From an uncultured Chloroflexia bacterium (GTDB lineage: Bacteria > Chloroflexota > Limnocylindria > Limnocylindrales > CSP1-4): a stretch of 64,000 nt of DNA. The translations under genes and the position numbers were made by a program. The stretch is from NCBI GenBank assembly GCA_963711405.1, contig CAVQDZ010000001.1, positions 90,703-154,702 on the forward strand, in the 5' to 3' direction. Shown here piece after piece: positions 1,360 through 62,208 of the stretch (the stretch's first letter is position 1; each line of letters opens with the position of its first letter). The notes below the pieces were generated by a model. It saw only the letters and a program-made list of their open reading frames with translations. It did not search any database and had not been told where the DNA came from.

Positions 1360-1421
1360 GAGCTTACGGAACGCGGCGCGCCGACCTGGGCGCGCCGTTC
1401 GGGACGTCGGTCACGGAGTGG

Positions 1422-2825: not shown

Positions 2826-2904
2826 GAGCTCTCCTCAGCTGGGGCACCGGAGAGGGCCGCAGTATAGGACGCACTCTGGTTGGGGCCGTGCGCGGGCCTA
2901 TGAG

Positions 2905-4014: not shown

Positions 4015-4036
4015 CTGCGCTCACGCCCGCGCAGTG

Positions 4037-4940: not shown

Positions 4941-4944
4941 GTCT

Positions 4945-5865: not shown

Positions 5866-5887
5866 TGCGCCCCCTGCGTGGTTCGTC

Positions 5888-6787: not shown

Positions 6788-6823
6788 ATTCCTTCCTCTC
6801 GCGTATCAAGCATTCTAGAAACA

Positions 6824-8803: not shown

Positions 8804-8887
8804 GGCACGTTTGAGGCGCTCCGCCGGAGTACCAATACCAAAGGTCCGGATCGACGGGCGCGCGCGCAGCCGCGATGCTCACCATCA

Positions 8888-11124: not shown

Positions 11125-11139
11125 GCGTAGGGACGGAAG

Positions 11140-43221: not shown

Positions 43222-44330
<1,109 letters not shown>

Positions 44331-44334
<4 letters not shown>

Positions 44335-46673: not shown

Positions 46674-46712
46674 CGTCAACAGATCGCCGGGCTGCGCTGG
46701 AGAGTCACCGGG

Positions 46713-47621
46713 CTAGGTTAGCGGGCGAGTCTCCCGGACCACGAGCACGGAGCACGGCGCGTGGAGCATCACGTTGCGCGCGACACTGCCGGCCAGGGCG
46801 CGGCGCAGCCCCGTGCGGCCGTGCGTGCCGACCACGATGACGTCCGCTTCGTCGTCCCTGGCGCAGCGGACGATCTCCTCTGCCGGGTCGCCCTGGATGG
46901 GACGCGTGACGGCCACGCGACCCTGCTTGCGCAGCCGGTGCGTGGCTTCGTCTGCCCAGAGCTGATGCTGCGCGGCGATCGCGCGCTCAGTCTGCGGATA
47001 GTCGATGCTGCCGGCATACGCGCTGAGCGCCAGGCTCGACGGCCACGACAAATTCATGTCAGTGACCGATAGGACTTCAACGGGCGTCGCGGCGAAGATC
47101 GGCCACGTACCGACTACCCGCTCTGCCGCTTCCCCAAAGCTTGACCCGTCGACGCCCAGGATGGCCCGCGACCAGGTCGATTTGCGGGCCACGATGACCG
47201 GGCAGTGAGCGTGATCGGCGACCTCCGCGCTGACCGAGCCCAGGAGCATCGAGCCGATCGTGCCGTGGCCGCGGCTGCCAACGACGATCACGTCCGCCTT
47301 GAGCAACTCTGCCTCGTCGACGATTGCCGTGGCCGGCCGGCCGATGAGCATGTGCGTCTCGACCTGCGCGCCCGTCTCGCGCAACGGAGCCGCCATGTGT
47401 TCCAGCTCCGTGGCCAGGCCGCCGATCATGGGCACCTCGCGTTCGACGGGATCCGCGATCGCGCCCGGCGCGCTGGGCACGTACGCGACTGAGGCACGCT
47501 CGACGACGGTCACGAGATGAATTGCGCAAGATTCCGGCCAGGGGATCCTTGCGGCCAGGTCGAGCGCGACCTGTGCGCACGCGGATCCATCGGTGGCCAC
47601 GAGGACGGTCATCTGATTCAT
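46713..47621 (-). CDS. Tandem universal stress protein
   Basis: Two USP domains (VLVATDGS...VGSRG...LGSVS; LGVDGS...VGTHG...GSVA...PCSVLVV). ATG 47621. Confidence 0.92.
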   Translation of the reverse strand: MNQMTVLVATDGSACAQVALDLAARIPWPESCAIHLVTVVERASVAYVPSAPGAIADPVEREVPMIGGLATELEHMAAPLRETGAQVETHMLIGRPATAIVDEAELLKADVIVVGSRGHGTIGSMLLGSVSAEVADHAHCPVIVARKSTWSRAILGVDGSSFGEAAERVVGTWPIFAATPVEVLSVTDMNLSWPSSLALSAYAGSIDYPQTERAIAAQHQLWADEATHRLRKQGRVAVTRPIQGDPAEEIVRCARDDEADVIVVGTHGRTGLRRALAGSVARNVMLHAPCSVLVVRETRPLT

Positions 47622-48085
47622 GGTGTTGGCTCCGGTTTCGGCTGTCGGTAGTAGACGACGGCAGCGATCACGAAACGCAGCAGCAGCGAGATCTCGTAGG
47701 TGACGCACCACACGCACACGGCCTTGATGACGAACACCTGCAGGAACAGGAAGTAGGCGTCGAAGATCACTCCGACCAGGGACAGCGCGTAGTGCGCAAG
47801 CAGCAGCCCGTAGATGTCCGTCTTCCACCACGCCAGCGCCAGGCTGAGCAGCACCACGGACAGCAACACTCCGAAGACGGCGACGGGGACGCCCAGGAAG
47901 TTGTTGTACTGGCTCTTGGCGACCTCCTCGCAGCCGGAGATGAGCCCGCACGTGGGCACCCCTCCGGACAGCTCCACGACTGACAGGTAGCCCGCGACAA
48001 GCAAGCCGACCGTGTCCAGCACGGCGAGGATGAGCCCCGGGTGGACGCCAAACAGCTTGCGCGCCGGGACGCGCTGGGTGAGCAC
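47618..48085 (-). CDS. Vitamin K epoxide reductase (VKOR) family protein
   Basis: C....GC..V..S, GVPVA, CVWC redox motif. Confidence 0.9.
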   Translation of the reverse strand: MLTQRVPARKLFGVHPGLILAVLDTVGLLVAGYLSVVELSGGVPTCGLISGCEEVAKSQYNNFLGVPVAVFGVLLSVVLLSLALAWWKTDIYGLLLAHYALSLVGVIFDAYFLFLQVFVIKAVCVWCVTYEISLLLRFVIAAVVYYRQPKPEPTP

Positions 48086-48099
48086 GGCCTGATCGCTCG

Positions 48100-48921
48100 C
48101 TACTGCACGGGTGCGGGCGGGGCGCCGCCGGCCGCGGTCATGATCGCATCGCCCAGATCCTTGACCGTGATCGGGCCGGTGTAGACCGCGCCGTTGAGCA
48201 TGATCGTCGGCGTCTGGTTGATGCCGTCCTTGACCGCCTGGTCAGTCTCCGCGCCGACGGCCGTCTGCTTGTCGCCAACGGCCATGCAGGTGTCGTAGGC
48301 GGACATGTCGAGCTCAGCGCTCTGGGCTATGGCGCGCAGTCGAGCTTGCGCGAATCCACCCTGGTTCTCGCCCGCCCAATTGGCGAACAGCCAGTCGTGC
48401 ATCTCCCAGAAGCGGCCCTGGTCGGCCGCGCACCGGGCGCCAGCGGCGGCCTGCTCCGACTCATCCCATGAGCTGGCCGACTTGCGTCCCTGGAACGCGG
48501 CGTCGTGATAAACGAGACGGGCGTAGCCGGGCACGACGAACTGGCTGACGAGTGACGGCTCGATGCGCGTGGCCAGCGCCCGACAGCCGGGACACTGGAA
48601 GTCGGACCAGATGTCGACCGCGACGGGCGCGCTGGCGCTGCCCAGCGTGCGGCCGTCGGCCTGACCGGCTGGTACGGCGGCAACAGGTGCGAGGAGCGTG
48701 TCGGTGGCAACAGTTGGCTGACTGGCCAGCGCCCAGGCCACGATGGCGGCGCCGACGACGAGCGCCGCGACCGTCAGTACGACAATCGGCGAGCGCCACA
48801 CCGGAGTCTTCGATGAAGCGCGCGCTGAGGGTCGTTGTGTCGCTCGCTCCGCGCGCTGGGCGGCGCGTCGCTCGCGACGCGCCGCGACAGGTGTCGCGGC
48901 GCTCTTTTTGCCGGCAGTCAT
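48100..48921 (-). CDS. Membrane-anchored DsbA-like thioredoxin
   Basis: TM anchor, SDFQCPGC, GINQTPT. Confidence 0.9.
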   Translation of the reverse strand: MTAGKKSAATPVAARRERRAAQRAERATQRPSARASSKTPVWRSPIVVLTVAALVVGAAIVAWALASQPTVATDTLLAPVAAVPAGQADGRTLGSASAPVAVDIWSDFQCPGCRALATRIEPSLVSQFVVPGYARLVYHDAAFQGRKSASSWDESEQAAAGARCAADQGRFWEMHDWLFANWAGENQGGFAQARLRAIAQSAELDMSAYDTCMAVGDKQTAVGAETDQAVKDGINQTPTIMLNGAVYTGPITVKDLGDAIMTAAGGAPPAPVQ

Positions 48922-49433
48922 GACTGGTGCTGCGGGCGGTTGAGTGCGGCAACGATCAGCAACACGCCGCCGCCGATCACGATGAGCGGCCAGATGAGGC
49001 CAAAGTCGAGCGTCGGGATGTACTGGCGCAGAAGGAAGAACGCGCCGACCACGATCAGGATCAGGCCGAACACAAGCGGGCCGGCGCCGTCGTGTCGTTC
49101 GCGCCGGTAATGACGTTCGTAGCGCGGCACGAGTGGCGGCGGCGTGCCCAGGTCAGGGTCGACCGGACCGGGAGGGGGCGCGGAGGTTGGCTGACCGTCT
49201 GGTCCCATCGGCGCCGGTGCACCCGCGGCGCTCCACAGCGAAGTCTGGAAGGGTCGGAGTGGAACGACGATGGCCATGACCAGGTACAGGAGCAGGAACA
49301 GGCCGCCGGTGATCAGGATCAGGAACGCCCAGCCGACGCGGACGATTGCCGGATCAAGATCCCAGGCTTCGGCCATTCCGCCGGCGACGCCGGCGATGAC
49401 CCGGTCGTCAGGCGACCGATACAAGCGGTTCAT
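48918..49433 (-). CDS. PspC domain protein with C-terminal LiaF/LiaI-like TM hairpin
   Basis: RLYRS..DRVIAGVAGG.AE...LDP..VR; GLILIVVG..FLL....WPLIVIG.G. Confidence 0.88.
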   Translation of the reverse strand: MNRLYRSPDDRVIAGVAGGMAEAWDLDPAIVRVGWAFLILITGGLFLLLYLVMAIVVPLRPFQTSLWSAAGAPAPMGPDGQPTSAPPPGPVDPDLGTPPPLVPRYERHYRRERHDGAGPLVFGLILIVVGAFFLLRQYIPTLDFGLIWPLIVIGGGVLLIVAALNRPQHQS

Positions 49434-50398
49434 TGGCACCCTCCCGATCTATCGAGCGTGATGGACGACAAGTTGCTTGTGACATGGAGCTCAGAAGGGG
49501 CAGGGACGATGCCCGCCGTGGACCAGTTCTCGCCACTGCCTACGAGGCCGGCCGCGGCGAAGTTGTCCGCACCGAGCGTGTTCGAGTACTCGACGCGCAG
49601 GCCCGCCGTCGGCGCCAGGCACACGGTCAGTGACGAGACGTTGAGCGTGACGCTCGCCTGTACGGCCGTATCTGGAAGCAGCAGCCGCACCGAGCTCGCG
49701 TTGAGCGTCGCGCTGACGCCGCTGTCACCGGTCGCACCGCGCAGGTCCAGGGTGGAGTCGGCACCGTTGTAAGTGGCACTGACGTGGCTGACGGAGCCGT
49801 TGCCGAAGGCCAGTCGCCCGGACGCCGCGTTGAGCGTCACGCCGGCGCCGACGATGCTCGAGGCCGGCAGCGTCACCCGCCAGTGCTCGTCCGTGCCGCC
49901 GGGGATCGGTCCGGCCAGGCGGGCGCTCGCCGAACGCAGGTCGAGCGACGTCGCATCCGCGCGTACGAGCGGAGATGCGCCGTCAGTGGCGACACCCACC
50001 GACCAGCCCGGATCGCCGCCGCGCGTGAGGCTGATGTCGCCACAGCTTAATTCGATGTTGACGTACGCAGACGAGCCGCTGAACGAGCCGGTCTGCGTCA
50101 CGGGAGCCGCGGCGGGTTGGCCGCCCGTGCATATGAAAGCGGGCGACGCGAGGCCGCCGGCGAAGAAGACCCCAACGACCAAACCAAAGGCGGCCGCCGA
50201 AACGACACTACCGAGCACCCGGTAACGGGTCATGCGCAGGACCAGGCTGAGCCCGATGCCAATCAGGATGAGCGGCCACAGCCGGAGTACGGCCACGGCC
50301 GCCTGCGCGTCGATCCAGCCCATCTGCACCGCAAGCGGCACGACGCCGAGGCAGATCAGAAATACGCCCCAGCCCAGGTAGCGGCGGTGGATCTTCAT
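49430..50398 (-). CDS. LiaF-like membrane protein with C-terminal beta-solenoid (toastrack-like) domain
   Basis: WGVFLI..G...LWPLILIGIG TM motif followed by Ser/Gly-rich beta repeats. Confidence 0.7.
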   Translation of the reverse strand: MKIHRRYLGWGVFLICLGVVPLAVQMGWIDAQAAVAVLRLWPLILIGIGLSLVLRMTRYRVLGSVVSAAAFGLVVGVFFAGGLASPAFICTGGQPAAAPVTQTGSFSGSSAYVNIELSCGDISLTRGGDPGWSVGVATDGASPLVRADATSLDLRSASARLAGPIPGGTDEHWRVTLPASSIVGAGVTLNAASGRLAFGNGSVSHVSATYNGADSTLDLRGATGDSGVSATLNASSVRLLLPDTAVQASVTLNVSSLTVCLAPTAGLRVEYSNTLGADNFAAAGLVGSGENWSTAGIVPAPSELHVTSNLSSITLDRSGGCQ

Positions 50399-50407
50399 CC
50401 GGACCTC

Positions 50408-52099
50408 CTAGGAGGCGGCAGGCGCACCAGCAGCGCTGGCCACTCCGGCCATCTCCTGGAGCGTTCGCCAGTTGAGCAGTCGATCGGCGGCCGTCGCCTC
50501 GATCTCCGGGCTCGGACTGCCGTCGGCGCCGAAGTGCGGCGCAAAGCGACCCTCCGTGCGCGCGAAGGCCACGAAGTCGAACAGTGAACCGTCGGGCTCG
50601 CGATACCAGTCCTCGCGCAACGCCGGATTGCCCTGGAGCGACAGCCGCTCAGCGAGCGTCGGACCGCGGCGCGGGTCATACGTGAACAGCGGGAACGCGC
50701 GCGAGTCGACCGCGAGCCGGGCCTGCGCCGCCGACGCGTCGTCGCCGATGCCGTGCTCCGGCTGGCAGGGGGTGTAGACGATGATCACGGCGGGGCCGGG
50801 ATACTCGTTGGCGTCCATCACCGCGCGGTAGAAGTGATTGATGTGCGCGGCGGTGGTCTGCGCGACGTACACCTCGCCGTGGGCGAGAAGGATGCGGCCG
50901 AGCTCCTTGCGCCGTTGCGTGTAGCCGTGCGTCTCCTTGCCGAACGCCGACAGCTTGGTGATCTGGCCGCCGAAGCTCGCGGTCGAAGACTGACCACCGG
51001 TATTCGAGTAGGCCTGCGTGTCCAGGACCATGACCTTGATGTCCGCTCCGCTGGCAACCATGCGTGACAGGGCCTGAAAGCCGATGTCGTACATGCCGCC
51101 GTCGCCACCCACGGCCCACAGCCGTCGATCCGCGTGACCTGCCTGGTCCCAGCGCGCACGAATGCCCATCGCATCTGTTGGCGCGTTTTCGAAGAGCGAG
51201 TTAGTCCACGGGATGACGTACGGGTTGTACGGGTAGGTGCTGCCATAGACCGTGTTGCAGCCGGTTGCGGCAACCATGCCCATCGACTCGGGGCCGTGGA
51301 TCTGGCGTGTGGCCGCGACGAGCATGCGCAGCGCCGTGGCTTCGCCGCAGCCCGAGCAGGACCCGGCACCGCCCACGTAACCGACCGCGTGCTCGCCGAG
51401 CATCAAGTCGGCCAACGCCTTGTCATTGCGGTAGACCGGCGGCGTGGGCGCCAACGAATTGAAGAAGCTGAACGCGACGCGGTAATCGCTGACGGTCGAT
51501 GGCGTCGTATCCGTCGCCGGTTGCTTGTCGATCATGACCAACGCGTCGTGGCCCAAGTGGGCGCATACCTCGACGCACTCGGCGCAGCCCTTGCAGTTGG
51601 TCGGGTCGATGAAGATGCCGAATAGCGCCGGCTCGATGCCCTTGCGCTCGGGCACGGTCGCGTACTTCTGAGTCTCGGCGAACTGCGCGTGCAGCTGCGT
51701 CTCTATCGCGGCTGGATCAGCCTGGGTCGCGGCGAAAGTCGTGATCGCGTTTTCGAGCGCGGCACGGGGTTGGGCCGTGGCCAGGATGGCCGTGTCGGGG
51801 CAGACGTTGACGCACGCCATGCAACCAACGCAGGCCTCAGCGATGAGCTGTGGGATGCGCGGCGACAGCGTCGAGAAATCGCGCGTGGCGGCTGTGGCGG
51901 GCGGAATGATCGAGCGTGCCAGGCCGGCGTCTGCGGGCAGCCCGCGGTCGGCCTTGCCTGACTTGTAGCTGGGCACGATCGTGGCGCCAAAGTCGGTGAC
52001 GTAGGTGTTGACGTCGAAGACAGGCAGCGCGTGGGCAAGGCGCACCTCGTGCGTCTCCATCGGTTCGCCTGCCTTCTTGGTCAGGACGTGTTCAACCAT
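50408..52099 (-). CDS. Pyruvate:ferredoxin oxidoreductase, 2x[4Fe-4S] + TPP-binding (delta-beta) half
   Basis: CVGCMACVNVCP, CKGCAECVEVC, GSCSGCGE, ATGC, NSLFEN, GGDGGMYDIG, YSNTGGQ. Confidence 0.92.
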   Translation of the reverse strand: MVEHVLTKKAGEPMETHEVRLAHALPVFDVNTYVTDFGATIVPSYKSGKADRGLPADAGLARSIIPPATAATRDFSTLSPRIPQLIAEACVGCMACVNVCPDTAILATAQPRAALENAITTFAATQADPAAIETQLHAQFAETQKYATVPERKGIEPALFGIFIDPTNCKGCAECVEVCAHLGHDALVMIDKQPATDTTPSTVSDYRVAFSFFNSLAPTPPVYRNDKALADLMLGEHAVGYVGGAGSCSGCGEATALRMLVAATRQIHGPESMGMVAATGCNTVYGSTYPYNPYVIPWTNSLFENAPTDAMGIRARWDQAGHADRRLWAVGGDGGMYDIGFQALSRMVASGADIKVMVLDTQAYSNTGGQSSTASFGGQITKLSAFGKETHGYTQRRKELGRILLAHGEVYVAQTTAAHINHFYRAVMDANEYPGPAVIIVYTPCQPEHGIGDDASAAQARLAVDSRAFPLFTYDPRRGPTLAERLSLQGNPALREDWYREPDGSLFDFVAFARTEGRFAPHFGADGSPSPEIEATAADRLLNWRTLQEMAGVASAAGAPAAS

Positions 52100-52517
52100 C
52101 GGTCGGCCTTCGCGCGAGCGCGCGCACCAGGTCGGTTGTCGAGATGACGCCGACTGGTGTCGTCTGGTCGTCGTCGACCACGACGAGGCGGTGGACGTGG
52201 GAGCGTTCCATGACCTGCGCCGCTTCCTCGAGCGACATCTGTCGGTCGGCGGTGAGAGCCGGCGAATGCATCAGGTGCCGAACACGAAGCCCGGGCCAGC
52301 GGTGCCACAGGTGGCCGACAGCCCGTGCGCGGACGATGTCGGTCTGGCTGATCACACCCAGCAGCACGCCCTGGCTGTCGACCACGGGCAAGCCGCTGAT
52401 GTCGTTCTCCTCGAGCAGGCGCACGGCGTCGTCGACCGTGGCCGACTCGTCGATGACGATCGGATCCGGGGTCATCAGCTGGTCGACCGTTACCGGCTCT
52501 GCGACGTGGGTAGTCAT
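52092..52517 (-). CDS. CBS-pair protein
   Basis: LMTPDPIVI, ISGLPVVD, GVISQTD, VHRLVVV, GVISTTD. Confidence 0.9.
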   Translation of the reverse strand: MTTHVAEPVTVDQLMTPDPIVIDESATVDDAVRLLEENDISGLPVVDSQGVLLGVISQTDIVRARAVGHLWHRWPGLRVRHLMHSPALTADRQMSLEEAAQVMERSHVHRLVVVDDDQTTPVGVISTTDLVRALARRPTDG

Positions 52518-54487
52518 GCGTGTGCCTCCTGCAGCTCTCGGGGCGCTTCGGCGCCTGCCGGCGCGGCGGCGCCGCGCAACGGCCCGGTGACATCGATGAG
52601 CTCCTCGTATGCCGCGCGGATCAGTCCCAGGTTTGCGTCGACGACGGCGCCGCCGCGCTTGCCGACTGACTTCGTGAGTGGTCCCTTGACCGCGGCCATC
52701 AGCTCGTCAATGGGCAGTCCGCGTGCAGCCACGAACGGGGCCACGCGCAGGAAGACGCCGACGAGTGCCGCGCCCTGCATCCTGCGGGCCATGTCGGGCG
52801 TCGGCGCGAAGCGCTCGGCGAGCGCGAGCGAGTCGAGCGCGACAACGTTGATGTCGCGCGCGATGATCTCCGCCCGGGCGTAGGCCGGGATCGAGTTCCA
52901 GATCTGCGCGGCATCGTCGAGCTTGCTGTTCAGGAAGAGCGTGCCGGCGTCGACGAGCCCGGCGAGCGGGTCGCCCTGGCCGAACGCGCTGACATCGTGG
53001 AGCGGGACGAGCTCCACGTAGCGCAGCTCGCTGTGCTGACGGATCGGCTCGTCGGCGATGGTCAGGTAGTAGGTCGTGGGCAGGCCACGCTTTTCTGAGC
53101 CGTAGCGCGGATAGGCCTGGACATACAGCCCGAAGAGGTCGCCGATGACGCTGGCCAGCAGCTTGTTGACCGTGACGGAGCCGTAGCCGCCGATCGAATG
53201 GCCGCGCAGGCTGTACGCGCCACGCGGGCGGATCTCGATTTCGGGTGCCTCGAGTGCGAGTGGGTGCTTGATGCCGAGCACGGCATACGGCCGTTCGGCC
53301 ATCAGAGCCTCGTCGCCGAGCCAGTCGTAGACGGCGATCAGGTCAGCCGACGAGACGTCGCGCGACCCAAGTCCGGCGGACGCCGACACGACGCGCGGAA
53401 TGCGCTGTCCGTCCGCGGCCAGGTCGGCGAGGGCGGCTTTCAGCTCGCGCGTCAGCGGGTTGGCAGAGGCGGCCGGCTCGTCCGTGCGCTCAATTACAGC
53501 AACCGAGTGCGCGCCGCCAAGCGCCTGTGCGAGCTCCGCGGCGGGGAACGGCCGGAACGATGTCACGGCCACGACCCCGGCGCGCACGCCTTGCTCGCGC
53601 ATGTGGTCGACGACGTCGCGCAGGCTGTCGGCGATCGTGCCCATGGCCACGACGATCCGATCGGCGTCTTCAGTCCGATATGCGTCGATCAGCCCATAGC
53701 GCCGACCGGTCAGCGACTGCCACTCGGCCATGACCTCCGCGAGGACGGCCGGGATGCGCTCGTACCAGGCGCGCTGGGCGATGCGGCCCTTCATGTAGCT
53801 GTCCTGGTTCTGGACGACGCCGGTCATGAGCGCCTCAGCCGGGTCGAACAGGTCGCGGATGCGCTCGCGCGGATCGCCGACGAAGTCGCGCAGCAGCTCG
53901 TCTTCCGGCAGCATCGCGTTTTCGAGCGTGTGCGTGGTCAGGAAGCCGTCCTGGGCGACGAGGAATGGTGTCTCTGTCTCTTCCGCCACGCGTCGGGCAA
54001 TGGCCGTCAGATCGGCCGCCTCCTGGACGTTGCGCGCGAAGAGCACGCCCCAGCCCGTGTCGGCGACGGCCATGACGTCGTCGTGGCCGGCATGGATGTT
54101 GAGCGCCTGGCTGGTCAGCGCCCGGGCGCCAACGTGGAAGACCACCGGCAGGCGCTTGCCGCTGATGACGAACAGCACTTCCTTCATGAGCACCAGGCCC
54201 TGCCCGGCGGTGAAGTTGGTGACGCGGCCGCCGGCCAGCGCGTAGCCCTCGGCGGCGGAGGCGGAGGAATGCTCCGATTCGGGCTCCAGGAAAGTCAGGT
54301 GGGTGCCCCACAGGTTGTGCTTACCGTCGGCGACCGCAGCCTGGAAGAGCGTCGCCATGGTCGTCGAGGGGGTGATCGGATAGGCGCAGCAGCCCTCGGC
54401 GATGCGCGTCTCGACGTATGCGACGGCCTCAGATCCGTCGATGATCGCGGCCTTGCCGGGGTAGCGAGGATGGGTTGTTTCGTTCAC
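52514..54487 (-). CDS. Pyruvate:ferredoxin oxidoreductase, alpha-gamma half
   Basis: DGSEAVA, YPITPST, ESEH, FTAGQGL, DGFLTTH, HSIGGYG, YGSEKRG. GTG 54487. Confidence 0.92.
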   Translation of the reverse strand: MNETTHPRYPGKAAIIDGSEAVAYVETRIAEGCCAYPITPSTTMATLFQAAVADGKHNLWGTHLTFLEPESEHSSASAAEGYALAGGRVTNFTAGQGLVLMKEVLFVISGKRLPVVFHVGARALTSQALNIHAGHDDVMAVADTGWGVLFARNVQEAADLTAIARRVAEETETPFLVAQDGFLTTHTLENAMLPEDELLRDFVGDPRERIRDLFDPAEALMTGVVQNQDSYMKGRIAQRAWYERIPAVLAEVMAEWQSLTGRRYGLIDAYRTEDADRIVVAMGTIADSLRDVVDHMREQGVRAGVVAVTSFRPFPAAELAQALGGAHSVAVIERTDEPAASANPLTRELKAALADLAADGQRIPRVVSASAGLGSRDVSSADLIAVYDWLGDEALMAERPYAVLGIKHPLALEAPEIEIRPRGAYSLRGHSIGGYGSVTVNKLLASVIGDLFGLYVQAYPRYGSEKRGLPTTYYLTIADEPIRQHSELRYVELVPLHDVSAFGQGDPLAGLVDAGTLFLNSKLDDAAQIWNSIPAYARAEIIARDINVVALDSLALAERFAPTPDMARRMQGAALVGVFLRVAPFVAARGLPIDELMAAVKGPLTKSVGKRGGAVVDANLGLIRAAYEELIDVTGPLRGAAAPAGAEAPRELQEAHA

Positions 54488-54521: not shown

Positions 54522-54560
54522 CGTGACGCGCGGTACCCAAAGACAGGGCCGTTTGGCACG
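54522..54560. promoter_or_regulatory. DosR/OsdR-like boxes upstream of PFOR operon
   Basis: AGGGCCGTTTGGCACG (54545-54560) plus weaker minus-strand GGTACCGCGCGTCACG (54522-54537), centred about -42.5 from GTG 54487. Confidence 0.6.
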
Positions 54561-54619
54561 CCAGTCAGGTCACTTCAGCGCTACGGATCCGTGATCGCCG
54601 GCACCTAGGGTCTGCGGCG

Positions 54620-55150
54620 ATGGCACCCAAGCGCGCAACGCTCGTAGCGACCGGGCCGGGACTCCGGCTCGTCGCCGGTACCGCCTCAGGCCATGCCGTG
54701 ATCTTCGACGACGAGCACGGCAACTCCGCCGCGCGGCCCATGGAAGTGCTCCTCGCCGCGCTGGGCGCGTGCGCGGGCATGGACGTCCTGTCGATCCTGC
54801 GCAAGAAGCAGCAGCCGGTCGCGGCCTACCACGTCCGGGTTGAGGGTGACCAACGCGTCGAGCATCCGCGCGTCTACACGGAGATCCGCGTCGTGCACGA
54901 GTTGGAGGGTGCGGGCATCGACGAAACGGCCGTTCGCCGCGCCATAGAGCTGTCCGCCGCGCGCTACTGCTCGGTCTCAGCCATGCTCGCCAGCGGCGTC
55001 GTGACCATTCGCCACCGCTATGTGCTGCGCGGCGTCTGTGAAGGCGATGACGAGGTTGGTGAAGTGATCGTCACCGGGCCATATTCGGCGCCCGGATCGA
55101 TACCGATCGGCCTGGGCTCAGAGCCCGTGGAGGCTGCCCTCCGCTCCTAG
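54620..55150 (+). CDS. OsmC family protein
   Basis: RPMEVLLAALGACAGMDV..IL.K and YCSV. Confidence 0.9.
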   Translation: MAPKRATLVATGPGLRLVAGTASGHAVIFDDEHGNSAARPMEVLLAALGACAGMDVLSILRKKQQPVAAYHVRVEGDQRVEHPRVYTEIRVVHELEGAGIDETAVRRAIELSAARYCSVSAMLASGVVTIRHRYVLRGVCEGDDEVGEVIVTGPYSAPGSIPIGLGSEPVEAALRS

Positions 55151-55166
55151 GCCGCCAGGAGGCGTC

Positions 55167-56438
55167 CTACACGAAGTGCGCGCGCCTCGCCTCTGATTCC
55201 AGCTCGTCGCGGAAGCGCGGGTCCGATATCGCGATGAGCTGGCGGGCGCGTTCGTGGATCGATCGCCCGTGCATCTCCGCAACGCCCCACTCGGTGACAA
55301 CCGTCTCGACATGTGCGCGCGTCGTGACCACGCCGGCGCCCTGGGCGAGAAAGGGCACGATGCGCGACACGCTGCCGCCGGCCGCGGTGGATGGCAGGGC
55401 GATGATGGCGCGCCCCTCATCGGCCAGGGCGGCGCCGCGTATGAAGTCCATCTGCCCACCCACGCCGCTGTACATGCGCGGGCCGATCGAGTCGGCGCAC
55501 ACCTGGCCGGTAAGGTCGATCTCGATCGCCGAGTTGATCGCAACCATTTTCCGGAAGCGACGGATCACGGCCGTGTCATTGGTGTACTCGGCCGAGCGCA
55601 TCTCGACCATTGGGTTGTCGTCGGCCCAGTCGTAAAGCCGCTGGGTGCCGAGCATGAAGGTGGCCACCACTCGACCGCGATTGATCTCCTTCTGGCTGCC
55701 CGTGACCACGCCACGCTCGACCAGGTCGAGGACCACGTCGGTCATCATCTCCGTGTGCACGCCAAGCTCGCGCTTGTCGCCCAGTGCGTTGGCTACGGCC
55801 GACGGGATCGCACCGATGCCCATCTGGAGCGTCGCGCCGTGAGGCACCAGGGCGGCGATGTATTCACCGATGCGCTGCTCGACCTCACCGATCGGATCAA
55901 GCGCGTGCTCGTAGGGCGGTACGTCCACCTCGACGCCCAGGTCGATGTCGTCAACGTGAACGAAGGTGTCGCCCAGGGTGCGCGGCATGCGCGCGTTCAC
56001 CTGGGCAATGACCACCTTGGCCGTCTTGATCGCCGTCGGCAGGGCAATCACGGAGGTGCCCATCGAGCAGAAGCCGTTGCGGTCCGGACGCGAGACGTTG
56101 ATGAGCACAGCGTCGAGGGCCAGGATGCCGCGGCGCATGAGCGCCTGCGCATCTGACAGGAACACCGGGATGTACTCGGCGCGCCCCTCGTTGACAGCCT
56201 TGCGCGCGTTCGGGCCGATGAACAGGGCGCGGTGGTAGAAGTGGCCGGCCATCTCAGGCGCCAGGTGCGGCCCCGGCCCTTCGCAATGGAAGTGGACGAT
56301 CTTGACGTCGCGCAGATCCGGCGCGCGCGCCACCAGAGCGTCGAGCAGTACGGACGGTGTGGCGGCCGCTGCATGGAGCCAGACCTGGTCGCCGGACTCG
56401 ATTCCGGCCACGGCCTCAGCCGCCGACACGATGCGCAT
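55167..56438 (-). CDS. Acetyl-CoA hydrolase/transferase (4-hydroxybutyrate CoA-transferase-like)
   Basis: LQMGIGAIP, HTEM, INSAIEIDLTGQVCADS, GVGGQMDF, VTEWG. Confidence 0.93.
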   Translation of the reverse strand: MRIVSAAEAVAGIESGDQVWLHAAAATPSVLLDALVARAPDLRDVKIVHFHCEGPGPHLAPEMAGHFYHRALFIGPNARKAVNEGRAEYIPVFLSDAQALMRRGILALDAVLINVSRPDRNGFCSMGTSVIALPTAIKTAKVVIAQVNARMPRTLGDTFVHVDDIDLGVEVDVPPYEHALDPIGEVEQRIGEYIAALVPHGATLQMGIGAIPSAVANALGDKRELGVHTEMMTDVVLDLVERGVVTGSQKEINRGRVVATFMLGTQRLYDWADDNPMVEMRSAEYTNDTAVIRRFRKMVAINSAIEIDLTGQVCADSIGPRMYSGVGGQMDFIRGAALADEGRAIIALPSTAAGGSVSRIVPFLAQGAGVVTTRAHVETVVTEWGVAEMHGRSIHERARQLIAISDPRFRDELESEARRAHFV

Positions 56439-56499
56439 TAGCTCTCCAGGTGAATGTTGACGCCGGCCACGACCCTACGACGTGGCCGGCGCCAGCCAT

Positions 56500-56515
56500 A
56501 GGGCCGATTGGCCGT
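56500..56515. promoter_or_regulatory. DosR/OsdR-like box
   Basis: AGGGCCGATTGGCCGT upstream of the CoA transferase. Confidence 0.6.
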
Positions 56516-56521
56516 CACACG

Positions 56522-58108
56522 TCAGTGCATCATGACGCTGATGCGGCCCTTCATCCACGGATGTGGCGTGCACGCATAGTCGAAGTCGCCGGGCTTGTCG
56601 AAGGTGTACGAGAAGGACTGTCCCGCGGCGAGCATGCCCGAGTCGAATGAGCCATCAGCGGCCGTCACGGTGTGGACCATGCCCGGGTCGTTGTTGGTCC
56701 AGGTCACGGTCGCGCCGAGCGGGACCATCAGCACGTTCGGGCCGTAGTCCGGCGGATTCTCCGTGTCGGCGAATTCATCAACAGCGCCATCTGCCTGGAA
56801 AGTGCTCGCGCCGGGCACGATGCTGACGCTGTAGCCCGTTGCCGGTCCACCCGACCCTGCGGGAGCGGACGGCGACGGCATGTCCGTGGATGGCGCCCCA
56901 CTTGACGTGACGGTCGCGGCCGGAGTTGGCGTCGCGGCAGGCGTTGGAGTCGTGGCCGCCGTTGGCGCCGGGAAGCCCTTGAAGATCTCCGGGTTCGGAT
57001 CGCCGGTGACCACGATCTGGCCGATTGCGCCCTTGTCAAATGCGCGTGCCAGGGCATGGTCGACCAGGACGATGGTCGAGGGCACCTGGGCGATCAGCTC
57101 CACCACCGTGCCGCCGCCGGCGGGCACGAGCGTGGTCTGGACTCCCCGCAGCGGAGCGTTGAGCAACGCGCCGTCCTCCCAGACCTTGTCCCAGTGCGAG
57201 CCAATCGGGTGGAAGTTGCTGTCCAGGTTGAGGCCCGCGTCAACGAAGTAGATGCGCACGTGGTCGCCGACGCTGACCCGTGGGGCGTTGTCGCCGGTGA
57301 GTGAGCCCATCGCCCCGTTGAACACGACGTAGGTTGGGTTCTCGTCCGTGATGGCCTTGCGATCGGTCGTCAGCGTGCCATCGGCGGCCTTCGTCGTGTA
57401 GTACTCGGACTGGACGATGTAGAGCTCCTTCTCGACCGCTGGCAGTGGCGTCTGCGGATCGACGAGGATGCCGCCGTACATGCCCTGGGCGATGTGGCCG
57501 GGCACGTCTCCGGCAGCGCAGTGGTACATGAAGATGCCCGGGTAGAGCATGCGGGCTTCGATCGTCGCGCTCTGACCGGGCGCGACGGTCAGGTCCTTGG
57601 CCCCGCCGCCCTGGCCGGTTACGGCGTGGAAGTCCACGTTGTGCGGCATGGTGCCGTTGTTGGTCAGCGTGAAACGCAGGATGTCGCCCACTCTGGCGCG
57701 GATGATCGGACCCGGCGTGCCGGTCGTGACCTGATTGTCGTCGTGCAGCCGGTAGCCCCAGGTCGTGTACTGGGTGCCGTTCGGGTCGATCGCCTGGACG
57801 CCCTCGACGACGTCGAAGTGGACTTCAACGATGGCCTGTGAGGTCCGCGTGGCAGCGGGCGGCACGTCCGGCGCGTAGGCGACGTTGACCTCGCCCTGTG
57901 GCACGGGCTTGAGATCCGCTACTGGCGTCAGCGCCGGCAGGACATCGTCGCTCGCGCCGGCCGAGACGGACGGGGAGGGCGCTGTTGCGGTGGCGGGTGA
58001 CGGACTGGGGCTCCGATCGGAGCGCTGGCGCGCGGTACAGCCGACGAGCAGAGCCGCGATGACCAGAACCGACAGAACAGCGATGACCGCGCGGTGTAGC
58101 GGCTTCAC
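56522..58108 (-). CDS. nirK: Copper-containing nitrite reductase, lipoprotein, with C-terminal cupredoxin domain
   Basis: Lipobox LLVGC. PHNVDFH, YHCA...HIAQGM, NFHPIG, VDHAL supply the T1/T2 Cu ligands and catalytic Asp/His. After a PT-rich linker, HTVT...YACTPHPWM. GGAGG SD. Confidence 0.88.
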   Translation of the reverse strand: MKPLHRAVIAVLSVLVIAALLVGCTARQRSDRSPSPSPATATAPSPSVSAGASDDVLPALTPVADLKPVPQGEVNVAYAPDVPPAATRTSQAIVEVHFDVVEGVQAIDPNGTQYTTWGYRLHDDNQVTTGTPGPIIRARVGDILRFTLTNNGTMPHNVDFHAVTGQGGGAKDLTVAPGQSATIEARMLYPGIFMYHCAAGDVPGHIAQGMYGGILVDPQTPLPAVEKELYIVQSEYYTTKAADGTLTTDRKAITDENPTYVVFNGAMGSLTGDNAPRVSVGDHVRIYFVDAGLNLDSNFHPIGSHWDKVWEDGALLNAPLRGVQTTLVPAGGGTVVELIAQVPSTIVLVDHALARAFDKGAIGQIVVTGDPNPEIFKGFPAPTAATTPTPAATPTPAATVTSSGAPSTDMPSPSAPAGSGGPATGYSVSIVPGASTFQADGAVDEFADTENPPDYGPNVLMVPLGATVTWTNNDPGMVHTVTAADGSFDSGMLAAGQSFSYTFDKPGDFDYACTPHPWMKGRISVMMH

Positions 58109-58137
58109 CAGTGGACCTCCCGTTGCGCGAGTTGCAG

Positions 58138-58168
58138 AAATGAACAGCAACGAGGTTCGTGTTTATTT
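58138..58168. promoter_or_regulatory. AT-rich imperfect palindrome, candidate Rrf2 (NsrR-like) operator
   Basis: AAATGAACA-N13-TGTTTATTT between divergent nirK and rrf2. Confidence 0.45.
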
Positions 58169-58180
58169 TGTGACCCGCCA

Positions 58181-58196
58181 CGTGCCGTTCGGCCCT
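58181..58196. promoter_or_regulatory. DosR/OsdR-like box
   Basis: CGTGCCGTTCGGCCCT (reverse complement AGGGCCGAACGGCACG). Confidence 0.6.
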
Positions 58197-58230
58197 ATTC
58201 GGAGGGGCAACAAGACGGCGAACTGTGCAT

Positions 58231-58707
58231 ATGCAACTTGAGCTCGCCCGGCGCACCGACTACGCGATACAGGCGCTCGTCCTGCTTGCCCACAATCCCG
58301 ATCAGACGCTGAGCAGCGTCGAGATATCCAAGCGCACCCACGTTCCCGTCCGCTTCGCGTCGCAGGTCATGGGCTACCTGGTGCGCGCGAAGTTCGTGAC
58401 CGCCGTAATCGGTCGGTCAGGCGGCTATCGGCTGAGCGAAATGCCAGAGCGAGTCAGCGTGCTGGCGATAGTCGAAGCAGTGGAAGGGGAGACCCGGCGC
58501 AAGCGCTGCGTCCTGCGCAGCGGGCCGTGCCAGCGCGCGATGCCGTGCGAGATCCACGACGTATTCAGTGCTGCGCAGGAGGCGCTTATCGCCGAGCTCG
58601 CCGCGGCGACGCTGGCCGACGTCGCGGCTGCGCCGCAGACCTCTAGTCGGACGTCGAGTGACGCTTCGCCAGGTATGCCGCCGCTTGCGCGCGGCGCTGG
58701 AGATTGA
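58231..58707 (+). CDS. Rrf2 family Fe-S transcriptional regulator (NsrR/IscR-like)
   Basis: TDYAI.AL, G..GGY.L, I..AVEG, three-Cys motif CVLRSGPCQRAMPCEIH. Confidence 0.9.
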   Translation: MQLELARRTDYAIQALVLLAHNPDQTLSSVEISKRTHVPVRFASQVMGYLVRAKFVTAVIGRSGGYRLSEMPERVSVLAIVEAVEGETRRKRCVLRSGPCQRAMPCEIHDVFSAAQEALIAELAAATLADVAAAPQTSSRTSSDASPGMPPLARGAGD

Positions 58708-59314
58708 GCTTCGAGAGGATCGAGCTGACGTAGTTCTTGACCGTCTTGTCGGACAGAAAGACTTCCGCCGCGATCTCCTTGTTGGTCTTGCCCTCGGCGA
58801 CCAGGAGCAGGATCTTCTGCTCCTGCGAAGTCAGCTGCGCGAGCTCGTCCGTGGCGCCACCGGTGGCGATGCGGCGCACGCGCTCGAGCACTTTCTCCGT
58901 CACTGCCGGATCGAGTAGGGATTCGCCACGACCGACGGCCTCGAGCGCTGCCACCAGGTCGCGCCCGCGGACCTGCTTGAGCAGGTAGCCGCTCGCGCCG
59001 GCGACGATCGCGGAGAAGACCGCCTCCTCGTCCGGGTAGCTGGTCAGGATCACGACGCGCGTACCGGGCAGCTCGGAGCGAATCTCGCGACACGCCTCGA
59101 TGCCCGAGCCATCGGGCAGGCGCACATCCATGATCACCAGCTCGGGCTGGAAGCGACGAGCGGCCTCGATCGCCTCGGCGACCGTGCCGGCCTCCGCCAC
59201 GACCTGGAAGTTGGGCCGGCGGCTGAGCATCGCGACCAGACCCTGGCGCACGACTTCGTGATCGTCGACCACGAGCAGGCGGAGCTGGCGCTCAACTGGT
59301 TGTGGGCTGGTCAT
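58643..59314 (-). CDS. NarL/LuxR response regulator, DosR/DevR-like
   Basis: VDDHEVVRQGL, DVRLPDGSGIEACREI, LTSY.DEEA, AGASGYLLK, TNKEIA...LSDKTVKNYVS.ILSKL closely follows the DevR pattern. Confidence 0.9.
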   Translation of the reverse strand: MTSPQPVERQLRLLVVDDHEVVRQGLVAMLSRRPNFQVVAEAGTVAEAIEAARRFQPELVIMDVRLPDGSGIEACREIRSELPGTRVVILTSYPDEEAVFSAIVAGASGYLLKQVRGRDLVAALEAVGRGESLLDPAVTEKVLERVRRIATGGATDELAQLTSQEQKILLLVAEGKTNKEIAAEVFLSDKTVKNYVSSILSKLNLQRRAQAAAYLAKRHSTSD

Positions 59315-60468
59315 TGGTTCCTCGTGGTCGAGATTGGGATCAGGAGCTCGAGTCGAGTCCCCGCGCCGGGCTCGCTGGTCAGGTTCATGATGCCGCCTAT
59401 CGCTTCCGATCGAGCGCTCAGATTGGTCAGGCCGCGCTGGCGGCTGCTGCGCGTCTGGGCGACATCGAAACCACGGCCATTGTCGCCGATCGCCAGCAGC
59501 ATCGCGCCGTCGCGCGCGCTCAGCGCCAGCGAGGCGCGCGTGGCCCCAGAGTGGCGCGCGATGTTGCTCAGCGCCTCGCGCGTGATGGCGAGCAGGTGCG
59601 CTGAGTCCTCCTGCGTTGGCTCGCTCAGATCGGCATCCAGGTGCAGCTCCAGATCGATCAGTGTGTTGGCCTCGAACTCGGCGGCGAGCGTCTGGATGCC
59701 CGTGGCAAGGTCGGCCCCGGCGAGCAGCTCGGGCTGGAGGCCCATGATGAAGTTGCGGATGTCGCGGATCGTGGCGTGGATCGAGTCGATCGCCCTGTCG
59801 GCCCGCGCTGCACCCTCCGTAGCATCTTCGGTGATCACCTCGGGCAGGTCCTCGAGCGACAGCGAGATCGCGTACAGGCTCTGGATGATCGAGTCGTGCA
59901 GGTCCTGGCTGATGCGCTGGCGCTCCTCGACGATCGCCAGGCGACCTATCTCCTCGTGCAGACGCGCGTTCTCGATGGCGATGCCGGCGTGTAGCGCGAA
60001 GCGCTCGACGAGCTGCAGGTCGCCCTCGCTGAACGATCCGCCGTCGATGCGGTTGGTGAGATACAGGTTGCCAACGGAGCGGCCCTTGGTATGCACGGGC
60101 ACGCCCAGAAACGAATGCATCTCAGGGTGGTTTGGCGGGAATCCGTAGCGCCGTTCGTCGGTGGCCATGTCGTCGATGAGGATCGAGTGGTCCTCGCGGA
60201 TGATCAGGCCCAGCAGGCCGTGGCCGCGCGGCGGCGCCCCGATCAGCGCGCGGATCTCGCTCGAGATGCCGCTGGTGATGAACTGCTCTATCTGGCCGAA
60301 GGATCCGACGATGCCCAGTGCGGCGTACTGAGCGCCGACAAGCTCGCGGACACGGTCGACGATGAGCTGCAGCACGCGCTCGACCGAGTCGATGGTGGCG
60401 ATGCCGCGCACGGCGGCATCGAGCGCCTCCAGCTGGCGGCGGAGCAGGGCCGCTTCGTCAGTGGGCAT
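59311..60468 (-). CDS. GAF-domain sensor histidine kinase, DosS/DevS-like (single GAF)
   Basis: GAQYAALG, PRGHGLLG, GFPPNHPEMHSFLGVP (heme-GAF-like His), ERQRISQDLHDSIIQ H-box, EALSNIARHS, DNGRGF. Confidence 0.9.
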   Translation of the reverse strand: MPTDEAALLRRQLEALDAAVRGIATIDSVERVLQLIVDRVRELVGAQYAALGIVGSFGQIEQFITSGISSEIRALIGAPPRGHGLLGLIIREDHSILIDDMATDERRYGFPPNHPEMHSFLGVPVHTKGRSVGNLYLTNRIDGGSFSEGDLQLVERFALHAGIAIENARLHEEIGRLAIVEERQRISQDLHDSIIQSLYAISLSLEDLPEVITEDATEGAARADRAIDSIHATIRDIRNFIMGLQPELLAGADLATGIQTLAAEFEANTLIDLELHLDADLSEPTQEDSAHLLAITREALSNIARHSGATRASLALSARDGAMLLAIGDNGRGFDVAQTRSSRQRGLTNLSARSEAIGGIMNLTSEPGAGTRLELLIPISTTRNQ

Positions 60469-60486
60469 CGCCAAAGAGCGTACCAG

Positions 60487-60525
60487 CGGCCCTAACGGTC
60501 ACGAGCATTAGGGCCGAACGTCACT
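60487..60525. promoter_or_regulatory. Tandem DosR/OsdR-like boxes between divergent kinase and multicopper oxidase
   Basis: AGGGCCGAACGTCACT (60510-60525, centred about -43.5 from ATG 60561) and reverse-complement GTGACCGTTAGGGCCG (60487-60502). Confidence 0.6.
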
Positions 60526-60560: not shown

Positions 60561-61684
60561 ATGACAAAGCTGCTGCAATCCTCGATCGACCGCCGCGGGT
60601 TCCTGCGCCGCGGCGTGGTCGGCGCGGCCGGCGTTGCCGCCGCGACCATCGCGGCTTGCGCGCCCGGCGGCGTCGCGCGCTGGACGTATAACCCACAGTC
60701 GTCCGCACCTGGTGCCGGCGCATCGCTGTCGCCAACGCAGTCGGCTTTCGCTTCGCTCGCGCCGACCGCACCGGCCATGTCGATGGGGCCCGGCTCGCCC
60801 ATGGCGACGATGGCCGGCGACGACATGGACGCCCTGGCCGAGGCCGTCATCAAGCGCTTCCCTGAGACAACTGACAAAGTCGGTAATCAGCCGCTGGCGC
60901 CGACCATGGACGGCACGACCAAGGTCTTCGAGCTGACCTCGTCGGCGTTCCCGTGGCACATCGACGCGGTGCTCAAGCCGGTCGATGCGGTCGGCTACAA
61001 CGGCACTTGGCCCGGTCCGATCCTGCGCGTGACTGAGGGCGATCCGGTGCGCGTGATCCATCACAACAATCTGTCCGAGTCGACCGGCATGCACTTCCAC
61101 GGCCAGGCGGTGCCCAACAACATGGACGGTGTGCCGTTCATCACCCAGCCGCCGATCAAGCCGGGCGGAACCTTCGTGTACGAGTTCAACGCCGGCCCGT
61201 CCGGGTCGCACATGTACCACTCGCACCACAACGCTACCGACCAGGTTGGCCGCGGCATGCTCGGCGCGTTCATCGTTGATCCGGCCGACCCCGCCAAGCG
61301 CTACCAGGTCGACCAGGACATCATCTGGATCAGCAACGACGAGCTGGGCGGCTTCACGATCAACGGCAAGGGCTTCCCGGCCACGGCACCGATCGTCGCC
61401 AAGAAGGGCCAGCGCGTCCTGGTGCGCTTCATGAACGAGGGCGTGATGACCCACCCGTGGCACCTCCACGGCCAGCCCTTCCGTGTGGTCGCGCGCGATG
61501 GCTGGCCGCTGGGCACGGCCGAGTTCACATGCGACACGCTCGGCGTCAACCCGGGTGAGCGCTGGGACGTGATCATCGACTGCAGAACGTCGGCGTGTGG
61601 GCTTTCCACTGCCACATCCTGACCCACGCCGAAGGCCACTCAGGTATGTACGGCATGGTCACCGCGCTGATCGTCCAGGAGTGA
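60561..61684 (+). CDS. Tat-exported two-domain multicopper oxidase, frameshifted at ~61585
   Basis: DRRGFL Tat motif, MHFHG, MYHSHH, HPWHLHG. The C-terminal ..GVWAFHCHILTHAEGHSGMYGMVTALIVQE* is in another frame, ending at TGA 61684. Confidence 0.88.
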
Positions 61685-62208
61685 TGAAGGACCGCGACGA
61701 GATGGTCACAGAAGCGAAGTCGCTCGCCCAGGCGCGCACGAGCGACCCTGAGCTCTCGACGCCGCGCACGCAGCCGAGCAAGATCAAGACGGTCCTGCTC
61801 GCGACTGACCTGACCGCGGCATCGGAGGTTGCGACGGATCAAGCGATCGACTTGGCGGCCTCGATCGGCGCCAAGCTGCTCGTGGTCAACGTCATCGACC
61901 CGGGTCAACCCGGCGGCGGACCAGTCGCGCCATACCCCAGCGTCGTACGCGTCGACCAGCAGCGGGCAAACCGCGAAGGGCCGTTGCTCAATATCGTCGA
62001 GCGCGCCAGGATCCGCGGCATCGATGGCGCGTTCCTGCTCTGGACGGGGGAGCCCGGACTGGGCATCGTCGCCGCGGCAGAAGCGGAAAGCGCCGACCTG
62101 ATCGTCGTCGGCACGCGCGGGCTGGATCGCGCGGGACGGTTCCTGCTCGGCTCGGTGTCTGACTACGTCGTCTACCACAGCAGCTGCCCGGTGCTCGTCG
62201 CCCACTGA
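61684..62208 (+). CDS. Universal stress protein
   Basis: VLLATD, GEP...I, DLIVVGTRG, LLGSVSDYVV...CPVLV. Confidence 0.92.
   Translation: MKDRDEMVTEAKSLAQARTSDPELSTPRTQPSKIKTVLLATDLTAASEVATDQAIDLAASIGAKLLVVNVIDPGQPGGGPVAPYPSVVRVDQQRANREGPLLNIVERARIRGIDGAFLLWTGEPGLGIVAAAEAESADLIVVGTRGLDRAGRFLLGSVSDYVVYHSSCPVLVAH

Follow-up and report, generated by a model that had tools for sequence, protein, structure and literature searches.

A predicted DosR-type hypoxia regulon with a one-GAF haem-type kinase in uncultured Limnocylindria (Chloroflexota)

If one 16-bp near-palindrome stands in front of genes for pyruvate oxidation, nitrite reduction, a copper oxidase and a two-component system alike, which protein binds it, and to which signal would it answer? 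The locus that raises this question belongs to an uncultured Chloroflexia bacterium (Limnocylindria; Limnocylindrales; CSP1-4). We analysed 64,000 nucleotides of contig CAVQDZ010000001.1 from assembly GCA_963711405.1 (positions 90,703 to 154,702, forward strand), hereafter the window, whose coordinates are used throughout unless a genome is named. Four promoter regions between 54,522 and 60,525 carry the box, and among them lie a response regulator and a GAF-domain sensor kinase that resemble DevR (DosR) and DevS/DosT of Mycobacterium tuberculosis. We consider it highly probable, judged from sequence, that the box is the operator of this local DevR/DosR/OsdR-type regulator, paired with a one-GAF, haem-type kinase, and that the genes behind it form a DosR-type hypoxia regulon.

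DosR/DevR is among the best-studied bacterial dormancy switches and is treated as actinobacterial. In the present case sequence suffices to recognise the regulator, the sensor, the operator and the layout of the promoters, and the host belongs to an uncultured class common in soil and lake habitats.

Four boxes in the window

An initial annotation of this DNA had placed four related 16-mers at 54545, 56500, 58181 (minus strand) and 60510, and all were found there. The boxes, their weaker neighbours (scored over ten core positions) and the nearby promoter elements are as follows.

54523..54536, no strand: secondary box GTGAC-GCGC-GGTAC, 9/10, 23 bp from P1
54546..54559, no strand: box P1, GGGCC-GTTT-GGCAC, 10/10; its 16-mer AGGGCCGTTTGGCACG starts at 54545
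54591..54604, no strand: possible third site GTGAT-CGCC-GGCAC, 9/10, 45 bp from P1
54606..54611, plus strand: TAGGGT, -10-like hexamer, 9-14 nt 5' of the OsmC ATG
56472..56477, minus strand: TAGGGT, -10-like hexamer, its centre 33 bp downstream of the P2 centre
56501..56514, no strand: box P2, GGGCC-GATT-GGCCG, 9/10; its 16-mer AGGGCCGATTGGCCGT starts at 56500
58182..58195, no strand: box P3, GTGCC-GTTC-GGCCC, 10/10; its 16-mer AGGGCCGAACGGCACG lies on the minus strand at 58181-58196
60489..60502, no strand: degenerate in-phase site, 7/10, with a good GTCAC half only, 22 bp from P4 and nearer the kinase
60511..60524, no strand: box P4, GGGCC-GAAC-GTCAC, 10/10; its 16-mer AGGGCCGAACGTCACT starts at 60510

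P1 lies between the divergent PFOR alpha and OsmC genes, with its centre at -65.5 from the PFOR GTG and -67.5 from the OsmC ATG, and the secondary box beside it is centred at -42.5 from the PFOR alpha GTG at 54487. The same-genus orthologue L173 has PFOR boxes at -66.5 and -42.5, with an ATG where the window has GTG 54487. The centre of P2 is at -69.5 from the ATG of a CoA transferase. P3 is centred at -42.5 from the ATG of an Rrf2-family regulator and at -80.5 from the GTG of NirK, a start preceded by a GGAGG Shine-Dalgarno motif, and P4 is centred 43.5 nt ahead of the ATG of the copper oxidase and 49.5 nt ahead of that of the kinase. Where one site centred at about -43 had been noted at the outset, three are seen (oxidase ATG, Rrf2 ATG and, with the 9/10 site, PFOR GTG). 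The initial annotation had also called all four boxes intergenic, which holds for three of them; the box at 54545 falls inside the longest open reading frame (ORF), beginning at GTG 54559, though upstream of the likelier start at 54487. Its tandem sites about 23 bp apart at two promoters were recovered in part: at PFOR/OsmC the second site is the 9/10 match 23 bp from P1, and at kinase/oxidase it is the 7/10 match 22 bp away.

The TAGGGT at -14 to -9 suggests that the OsmC mRNA is leaderless or has a very short leader. Upstream of the CoA transferase the other TAGGGT is followed by a GGAG Shine-Dalgarno motif before the ATG, and P2 would lie near -42.5 of a transcript start about 27 nt before that codon. 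The kinase promoter has TACGCT at -14 to -9 from the ATG. At the PFOR alpha, NirK, Rrf2 and oxidase promoters no hexamer of the form TANNNT was found where expected. The possible third site near P1 may be a chance occurrence. Far from these promoters, a 14-bit box-like sequence, GGGAC-GTCG-GTCAC, occupies 1401-1414 and precedes by 49 nt the gene at the left edge of the window.

The box is a spacing-specific intergenic signal

The motif reads GKGMC-N4-GKCMC, typically AGGGCC-N4-GKCAC, with an AT-richer centre in a matrix built from relatives. In the window the pattern AGGGCCGNNNGNCNC matched three times against 0.64 expected, a number reached in one of 100 shuffles; it misses the box at 56500 because the right half there is GGCCG (9/10 core positions). 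We then counted the motif across the source genome (G000; 3.14 Mb, 66.5% GC), in which an in-house ORF scorer called 2953 ORFs covering 85% of the sequence. At x=4, intergenic DNA contains 17 copies of GGGCC-Nx-GKCAC, compared with 9, 1, 4, 2, 3, 4, 6, 9, 7, 2, 5 and 6 for x=0-3 and 5-12 (mean 4.8). Within genes the counts are flat, with 20 at x=4 versus 20-34 at other spacers. For GGGCC-N4-GKCMC we found 31 intergenic occurrences, against 6-18 for the other spacers. A matrix made from the four window sites over-fitted their flanks (49 of its 140 matches were intergenic) and was dropped in favour of these spacer controls and the matrix trained on relatives. The latter placed 12 of its 16 matches scoring at least 16, and all five scoring at least 18, in intergenic DNA, which makes up a background fraction of 0.21. 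Given an intergenic excess at spacer 4 only, together with the matrix matches, the motif is a genuine spacing-specific intergenic signal.

The regulator resembles DevR and the box resembles its operator

Two adjacent genes would supply the sensor and the DNA-binding protein.

58643..59314, minus strand: response regulator, REC domain plus GerE/LuxR helix-turn-helix (HTH), DevR/DosR-like (Pfam; PDB match)
59311..60468, minus strand: sensor kinase with one GAF domain (residues 30-168), HisKA_3 (184-250) and HATPase_c (Pfam)

The best solved match of the regulator is M. tuberculosis DevR (3C3W; E 7.3e-58, residues 12-216, 198.7 bits), with about 48% identity as counted in the printed alignment. 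VraR (E 7.3e-46) and NarL (E 4.6e-34, 121 bits) match more weakly. The recognition-helix stretch KTVKNYVS is identical in the regulator and in 3C3W; the DNA-contact residues Lys179, Lys182 and Asn183 of DevR presumably fall within its K-T-V-K-N.

The DNA side points the same way. The consensus given for OsdR of Streptomyces is the 16-nt palindrome AGGGCCGATCGGCCCT (PMC5069765), and the box is essentially this sequence; OsdR sites reported there, such as CGGGACCTTCGGCCCT, recur nearly letter for letter in G000. For DevR, G5 and C7 of each half-site are described as essential (PMC3177182). The invariant G and C of the half-sites here correspond to these two positions, and the variable G/T and A/C to non-essential ones. 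The box also has the form of a 16-20 bp near-palindrome, GGG(A/C)C-N4-G(T/G)CCC. A DosR/OsdR-type palindrome had been suspected from the outset, and the match to the published consensus, the spacer-4 excess and the conservation described below all bear this out.

The kinase fits the same comparison. Its GAF domain matches the haem-carrying GAF-A of DosT/DevS (2VZW, E 1e-33; 2Y8H, E 1.4e-29; others around 1e-29), so that the DosR/DosS-like character first assigned to regulator and kinase agrees with their best solved relatives. In DosS the haem is reported to have His149 as its proximal and Tyr171 as its distal residue (PMC4082495). Both columns are conserved in the 2VZW and 2Y8H alignments, as mapped by counting chain positions, with the proximal His in an FPPNHPEM stretch, and the GAF domain is predicted to bind haem. 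DosS and DosT are described as carrying GAF-A plus GAF-B. A single GAF was found also in the four orthologues that were scanned among some 70 kinase ORFs. In the kinase ORFs of L058, L059, L063, L068 and L097, 100-200 extra N-terminal residues without a Pfam domain precede the single GAF; these extensions may be real protein or ORF over-extension.

The box and its spacing are conserved in relatives

Of 71 Limnocylindria loci, 52 have an exact box in the 1.2 kb preceding the kinase-regulator operon, whereas control spacers 0-3 and 5-10 give 2-8 of 71 in the same regions. An exact box precedes the Rrf2 gene in 19 of 26 loci, NirK in 8 of 11 and the copper oxidase in 22 of 25, with 0-3 for each control spacer, and PFOR alpha in 11 of 16 genomes of the family (G000 counted) from different genera. 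The kinase-upstream boxes used for training had been selected for the form G-K-G-M-C on both sides; in this set most right halves read GGCCC, with C filling the fourth position in 80%, and G fills the second position in about 37% of left halves. Ahead of many CoA-transferase genes a box with one mismatch occupies the same position.

Spacing between boxes was measured over 1.14 Mb of relatives' loci with 266 exact boxes. Among the 25 pairs of exact boxes no more than 80 bp apart, 15 are 21-23 bp apart, with smaller groups at 44-45 bp and at 64-67 bp. Near-boxes, which match 8 or more of the 10 core positions, are found in 20% of cases at offset 22, in 8.5% at offset 23 and in about 1% at other offsets. 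Distances to the gene are also fixed: the box centre lies 42.5-44.5 nt before the start codon in 15 of 20 cases for Rrf2 and 5 of 7 for the CoA transferase. Published accounts describe DevR promoters with between two and four boxes in tandem, in phase with the helix; at tgs1 sites lie at -42.5 and -63.5. The tandem, in-phase layout with a proximal site near -42.5 appears to match these promoters, and the box upstream of the regulator's own operon is consistent with autoregulation.

In L063, L065, L068, L071, L074-L079 and others, a conserved TAGACT (or TAGAGT or TAAACT) ends about 7 nt before the CoA-transferase ATG, without a Shine-Dalgarno motif, which suggests that leaderless mRNAs are common in Limnocylindria. 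The window's own CoA-transferase gene, with its GGAG-bearing leader, differs. In L065, L070 and L076 a strong box, CAGGGCCGAA(T/C)GGCCCCC, is found about 150-250 nt past the CoA-transferase gene, directly upstream of another REC-domain gene, a distant one whose product shares 35-37% identity with the regulator.

Beyond these families, at least one exact box was present in 9 of 20 regulator loci from distant Chloroflexota families (15 boxes, versus 2-9 for other spacers). Since such boxes lie directly upstream of the regulator or kinase in some loci only, they lend weak support.

Other binders and points against the operator assignment

Could the boxes be chance GC-rich near-palindromes or terminator-like repeats without a regulatory role? 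A genome of 66.5% GC with 20 exact matches in coding DNA lends itself to that idea, but chance would explain neither an intergenic excess specific to spacer 4, nor box positions kept across about 100 loci where spacer controls are not, nor the fixed distances from box to start codon and from box to box; its probability is negligible. The question is rather which protein binds. The box could be the operator of the adjacent Rrf2/NsrR-like regulator, which would repress nirK and its own gene until nitric oxide (NO) destroys its Fe-S cluster. This protein is nearest NsrR and keeps three cysteines, its gene diverges from nirK as in known NsrR systems, and the box stands at a fixed distance before it in 19 of 26 loci. 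However, 41 of the 52 loci that have the box before the kinase show no Rrf2 gene within the locus, and 29 of them are full loci of +/-8 kb. PFOR, the oxidase and the CoA transferase have the box in front of them as well, and the 22-bp tandem phasing and the identity with the OsdR consensus indicate a DevR-type protein. Known Rrf2 operators are longer and AT-rich. We regard Rrf2 as a very unlikely binder.

Binding by a CRP/FNR-family protein suggests itself because GTGAC-N4-GTCAC contains GTGA-N6-TCAC. Some sites fit, such as ATGTGACCTTTGTCAC in L070, and the cNMP-binding regulator gene of G000 has a box 56 nt upstream; the mycobacterial CRP-family protein Cmr is reported to cluster at DosR-regulon promoters, although the Cmr motif given in the same account, TGTCA-N6-TGACA, differs from the box (PMC4705688). 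The CRP and FNR half-sites (TGTGA-N6-TCACA and TTGAT-N4-ATCAA) are not matched, and overlap with the CRP core is confined to GTGAC...GTCAC variants, while most half-sites are GGGCC or GGGAC, without a GTGA core. The box is kept upstream of the kinase-regulator operon, and its 22-bp tandem layout is a DevR trait; a CRP-type binder is extremely unlikely. Closer to home, G000 encodes a second NarL-family regulator (G000:C9:554763-555374, 42% identical to the first), and similar second copies occur in many relatives. This paralogue might be the true or an additional binder, with the local pair controlling something else, and related HTH domains can share sites. Yet the local regulator keeps the DevR recognition helix unchanged, and it is next to its gene that the box is conserved; we give the paralogue a very low probability.

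Several observations weigh against assigning the box to the local DevR-type regulator as the operator of a hypoxia regulon. No GAF-B was found before the kinase core. Within the window the second sites are degenerate (9/10 and 7/10), and P2 itself reaches 9/10. For the CoA transferase an exact box was present in 7 of 44 loci, compared with 1-4 for control spacers, and in the seven lower-GC loci (47-58% GC) among the 20 from distant Chloroflexota families no exact box was found. Intergenic labels are approximate, because they depend on the in-house ORF scorer, and with 20 exact matches inside genes a lone match is not diagnostic. The top sites outside the window precede mixed genes, namely an NfnAB-like oxidoreductase, ABC transporters, cytochrome b, ArsR operons and the cNMP-binding regulator. 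A PNPOx pair (G000:C9:192627) was tried as a conserved target and rejected, with an exact box in 2 of 13 genomes, G000 counted; target assignments outside the window are therefore tentative.

Genes of the predicted regulon

Around the four boxes lie the following genes.

43222..54487, minus strand: PFOR-to-AckA unit, a putative ten-gene operon with intergene gaps of at most 38 nt (Pfam/NCBIfam)
54620..55150, plus strand: OsmC-family protein (Pfam/NCBIfam)
55167..56438, minus strand: CoA transferase of the acetyl-CoA hydrolase/transferase family (Pfam/NCBIfam)
56522..58108, minus strand: copper nitrite reductase of NirK type with a C-terminal cupredoxin (TIGR02376, Pfam)
58231..58707, plus strand: Rrf2-family regulator, nearest NsrR; three of its Cys align with the cluster ligands; predicted to belong to the regulon
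60561..61622, plus strand: two-domain multicopper oxidase with a twin-arginine-like N-terminus (Pfam/NCBIfam)
61681..62208, plus strand: universal stress protein (USP), the genome's best USP match at 111.9 bits
62299..64000, plus strand: P-type ATPase of 1023 aa, running on past the window end to coordinate 65370

The long unit encodes, in order, PFOR alpha, a CBS pair, PFOR beta, a LiaF-like protein, PspC, a DsbA-like protein, VKOR, a tandem USP, phosphoketolase and acetate kinase, and control of phosphoketolase and AckA would depend on its being transcribed as one operon. Pfam or NCBIfam confirmed the gene content that had been read from the DNA at first: USP, CBS, PFOR, phosphoketolase, acetate kinase and CoA transferase, and also the NirK-type reductase, the two-domain copper oxidase and the P-type ATPase. 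NirK scored 287.8 bits against TIGR02376 (cut-off 296.3) over model positions 12-322 of 326. An HMA domain was not found in the P-type ATPase (62299 onward). The three strongest USP domains of the genome all lie in the putatively box-controlled units of the window, and at five other USP loci of G000 no box scoring at least 8 was found within 4 kb, save one unrelated near C8:733261. Together with the CBS pair and the P-type ATPase, the USP-rich targets would fit a DosR-type dormancy regulon.

Some of these genes call for separate remarks. The acetate kinase ORF (43222-44292, minus strand) covers Pfam positions 53-391 of 392 and TIGR00016 positions 61-402 of 405; some 35-50 residues seem to be missing at its N-terminus, unless it begins further upstream in a different frame. 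Two PFOR alpha orthologues, G190:C10:799183-801120 and G443:C12:174383-176314, carry one in-frame TGA each, which may reflect recoding, a pseudogene or an error of sequencing. The Rrf2 ORF converges on that of the response regulator, and the two share 65 nt at their 3' ends (58643-58707).

Elsewhere in G000, box-like palindromes such as GTGCC-GTTG-GTCAC stand 43-84 nt upstream of three ArsR-headed operons (G000:C8:373127-373498, C8:360958-361302 and C4:321120-321455), two of which encode DsrE and TusA and the third an ArsP permease and thioredoxin. They could be operators of ArsR instead of DevR boxes. At the far end of the window, positions 1-12468 hold a polysaccharide cluster (a sugar transferase, several glycosyltransferases, two sulfotransferases and a UDP-glucose dehydrogenase), and a GAF-GGDEF diguanylate cyclase is encoded at 8888-10180.

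Distribution in Chloroflexota

The 80 closest regulator loci in public genomes come almost all from metagenome-assembled genomes titled Candidatus Limnocylindrales, Limnocylindria, Chloroflexota or Chloroflexi. As the near relatives are Chloroflexota, the system lies outside Actinobacteria, a placement that the initial annotation had offered as a possibility. Regulator homologues at E <= 1e-55 were found in 138 of 401 sampled Chloroflexota genomes (including one unpublished, G078). All 23 genomes sampled from the window's family have one, as does every sampled genome in three other families (16, 24 and 8 genomes); at the same threshold none was found in the four small genomes of the sister family. 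Among the titles and abstract openings of a limited literature collection we found no work on DosR in Chloroflexi; in the same collection the listed matches for DevR with Chloroflex* were unrelated, and those for Limnocylindria with hypoxia were unrelated only.

Comparison with known systems

Every sequence feature of the known DosR-type family was found, apart from the second GAF domain. As in DevR-DevS/DosT, a REC-LuxR regulator stands with a kinase that has a haem-type GAF-A with its His and Tyr columns, HisKA_3 and HATPase, and the operator is of the 5-4-5 GGG(A/C)C type, with tandem in-phase boxes and apparent autoregulation. A USP gene adjoins the system, and USP, CBS-pair and P-type ATPase genes belong to the predicted regulon; they have counterparts in the M. 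tuberculosis regulon. Unlike that system, the present one has a Limnocylindria host, a kinase without GAF-B, half-sites that are mostly GGGCC or GTGAC instead of GGGAC, and a tandem spacing of mostly 22 rather than 21 bp. Its predicted targets also differ: PFOR, phosphoketolase-acetate kinase, the CoA transferase, NirK, the NsrR-like Rrf2 and the copper oxidase. No counterparts of hspX, tgs1 or nitroreductase were seen in the window.

The OsdR-OsdK system of S. coelicolor shares the consensus, a USP cluster and a Crp-like regulator among the predicted targets, but belongs to another phylum and has another target set; published accounts have OsdR controlling development and nitrate reductase genes. 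With NarL/NarX the pair shares the REC plus GerE family, the HisKA_3 class and a link to nitrogen-oxide respiration, and NarL is the weaker PDB and NCBIfam match (121 bits, against the 198.7 of DevR). NarX senses via a periplasmic domain, not a cytoplasmic haem GAF, and NarL heptamer sites differ from the box. Known NsrR-nirK systems likewise have an NsrR-like gene divergent from nirK and three Cys ligands; unlike there, Rrf2 here looks like a target of the box and not its binder. What is new here is the host phylum, the one-GAF kinase and the target set; the switch is of a known kind and not a new mechanism.

A model and its meaning

By homology, the haem GAF of the kinase would respond when O2 is lost or when NO or CO binds, and the kinase would then phosphorylate the regulator. 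Regulator dimers are predicted to bind the 5-4-5 near-palindrome G(G/T)G(A/C)C-N4-G(G/T)C(A/C)C and to spread cooperatively to weaker sites 22-23 bp away. A site about -42.5 from the transcript start would activate RNA polymerase at several targets whose mRNAs are apparently leaderless. From the four intergenic regions the regulator would switch on the kinase-regulator operon itself, the copper oxidase-USP-P-type ATPase operon, NirK and the NsrR-like Rrf2, the CoA transferase, OsmC and the long PFOR-CBS-USP-phosphoketolase-acetate kinase operon. The net effect would be ferredoxin-linked pyruvate oxidation, substrate-level ATP formation via acetyl phosphate, and nitrite reduction.

More tentatively, the combination of haem-GAF kinase, DevR-type regulator and GGGMC-N4-GKCCC box could be an old and widely kept O2/NO switch of Chloroflexota and not an actinobacterial invention. 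Its ancestral kinase would have had one GAF domain, as a 'minimal DosS', and in soil and freshwater Limnocylindria it would drive PFOR/phosphoketolase fermentation together with nitrite reduction. We hold this wider proposal as possible rather than probable.

The one-GAF kinase is a natural variant for asking what GAF-B adds to DosS/DosT signalling, and the target set offers a point of comparison for regulon rewiring between phyla. Both are of interest for the evolution of DosR and for the ecology of uncultured Chloroflexota. The regulon predicts how Limnocylindria would respond to loss of O2, namely with PFOR, ATP synthesis from acetyl phosphate and a copper nitrite reductase. If the module does drive such fermentation and nitrite reduction, this would explain how these abundant, uncultured aerobes survive in anoxic microsites.

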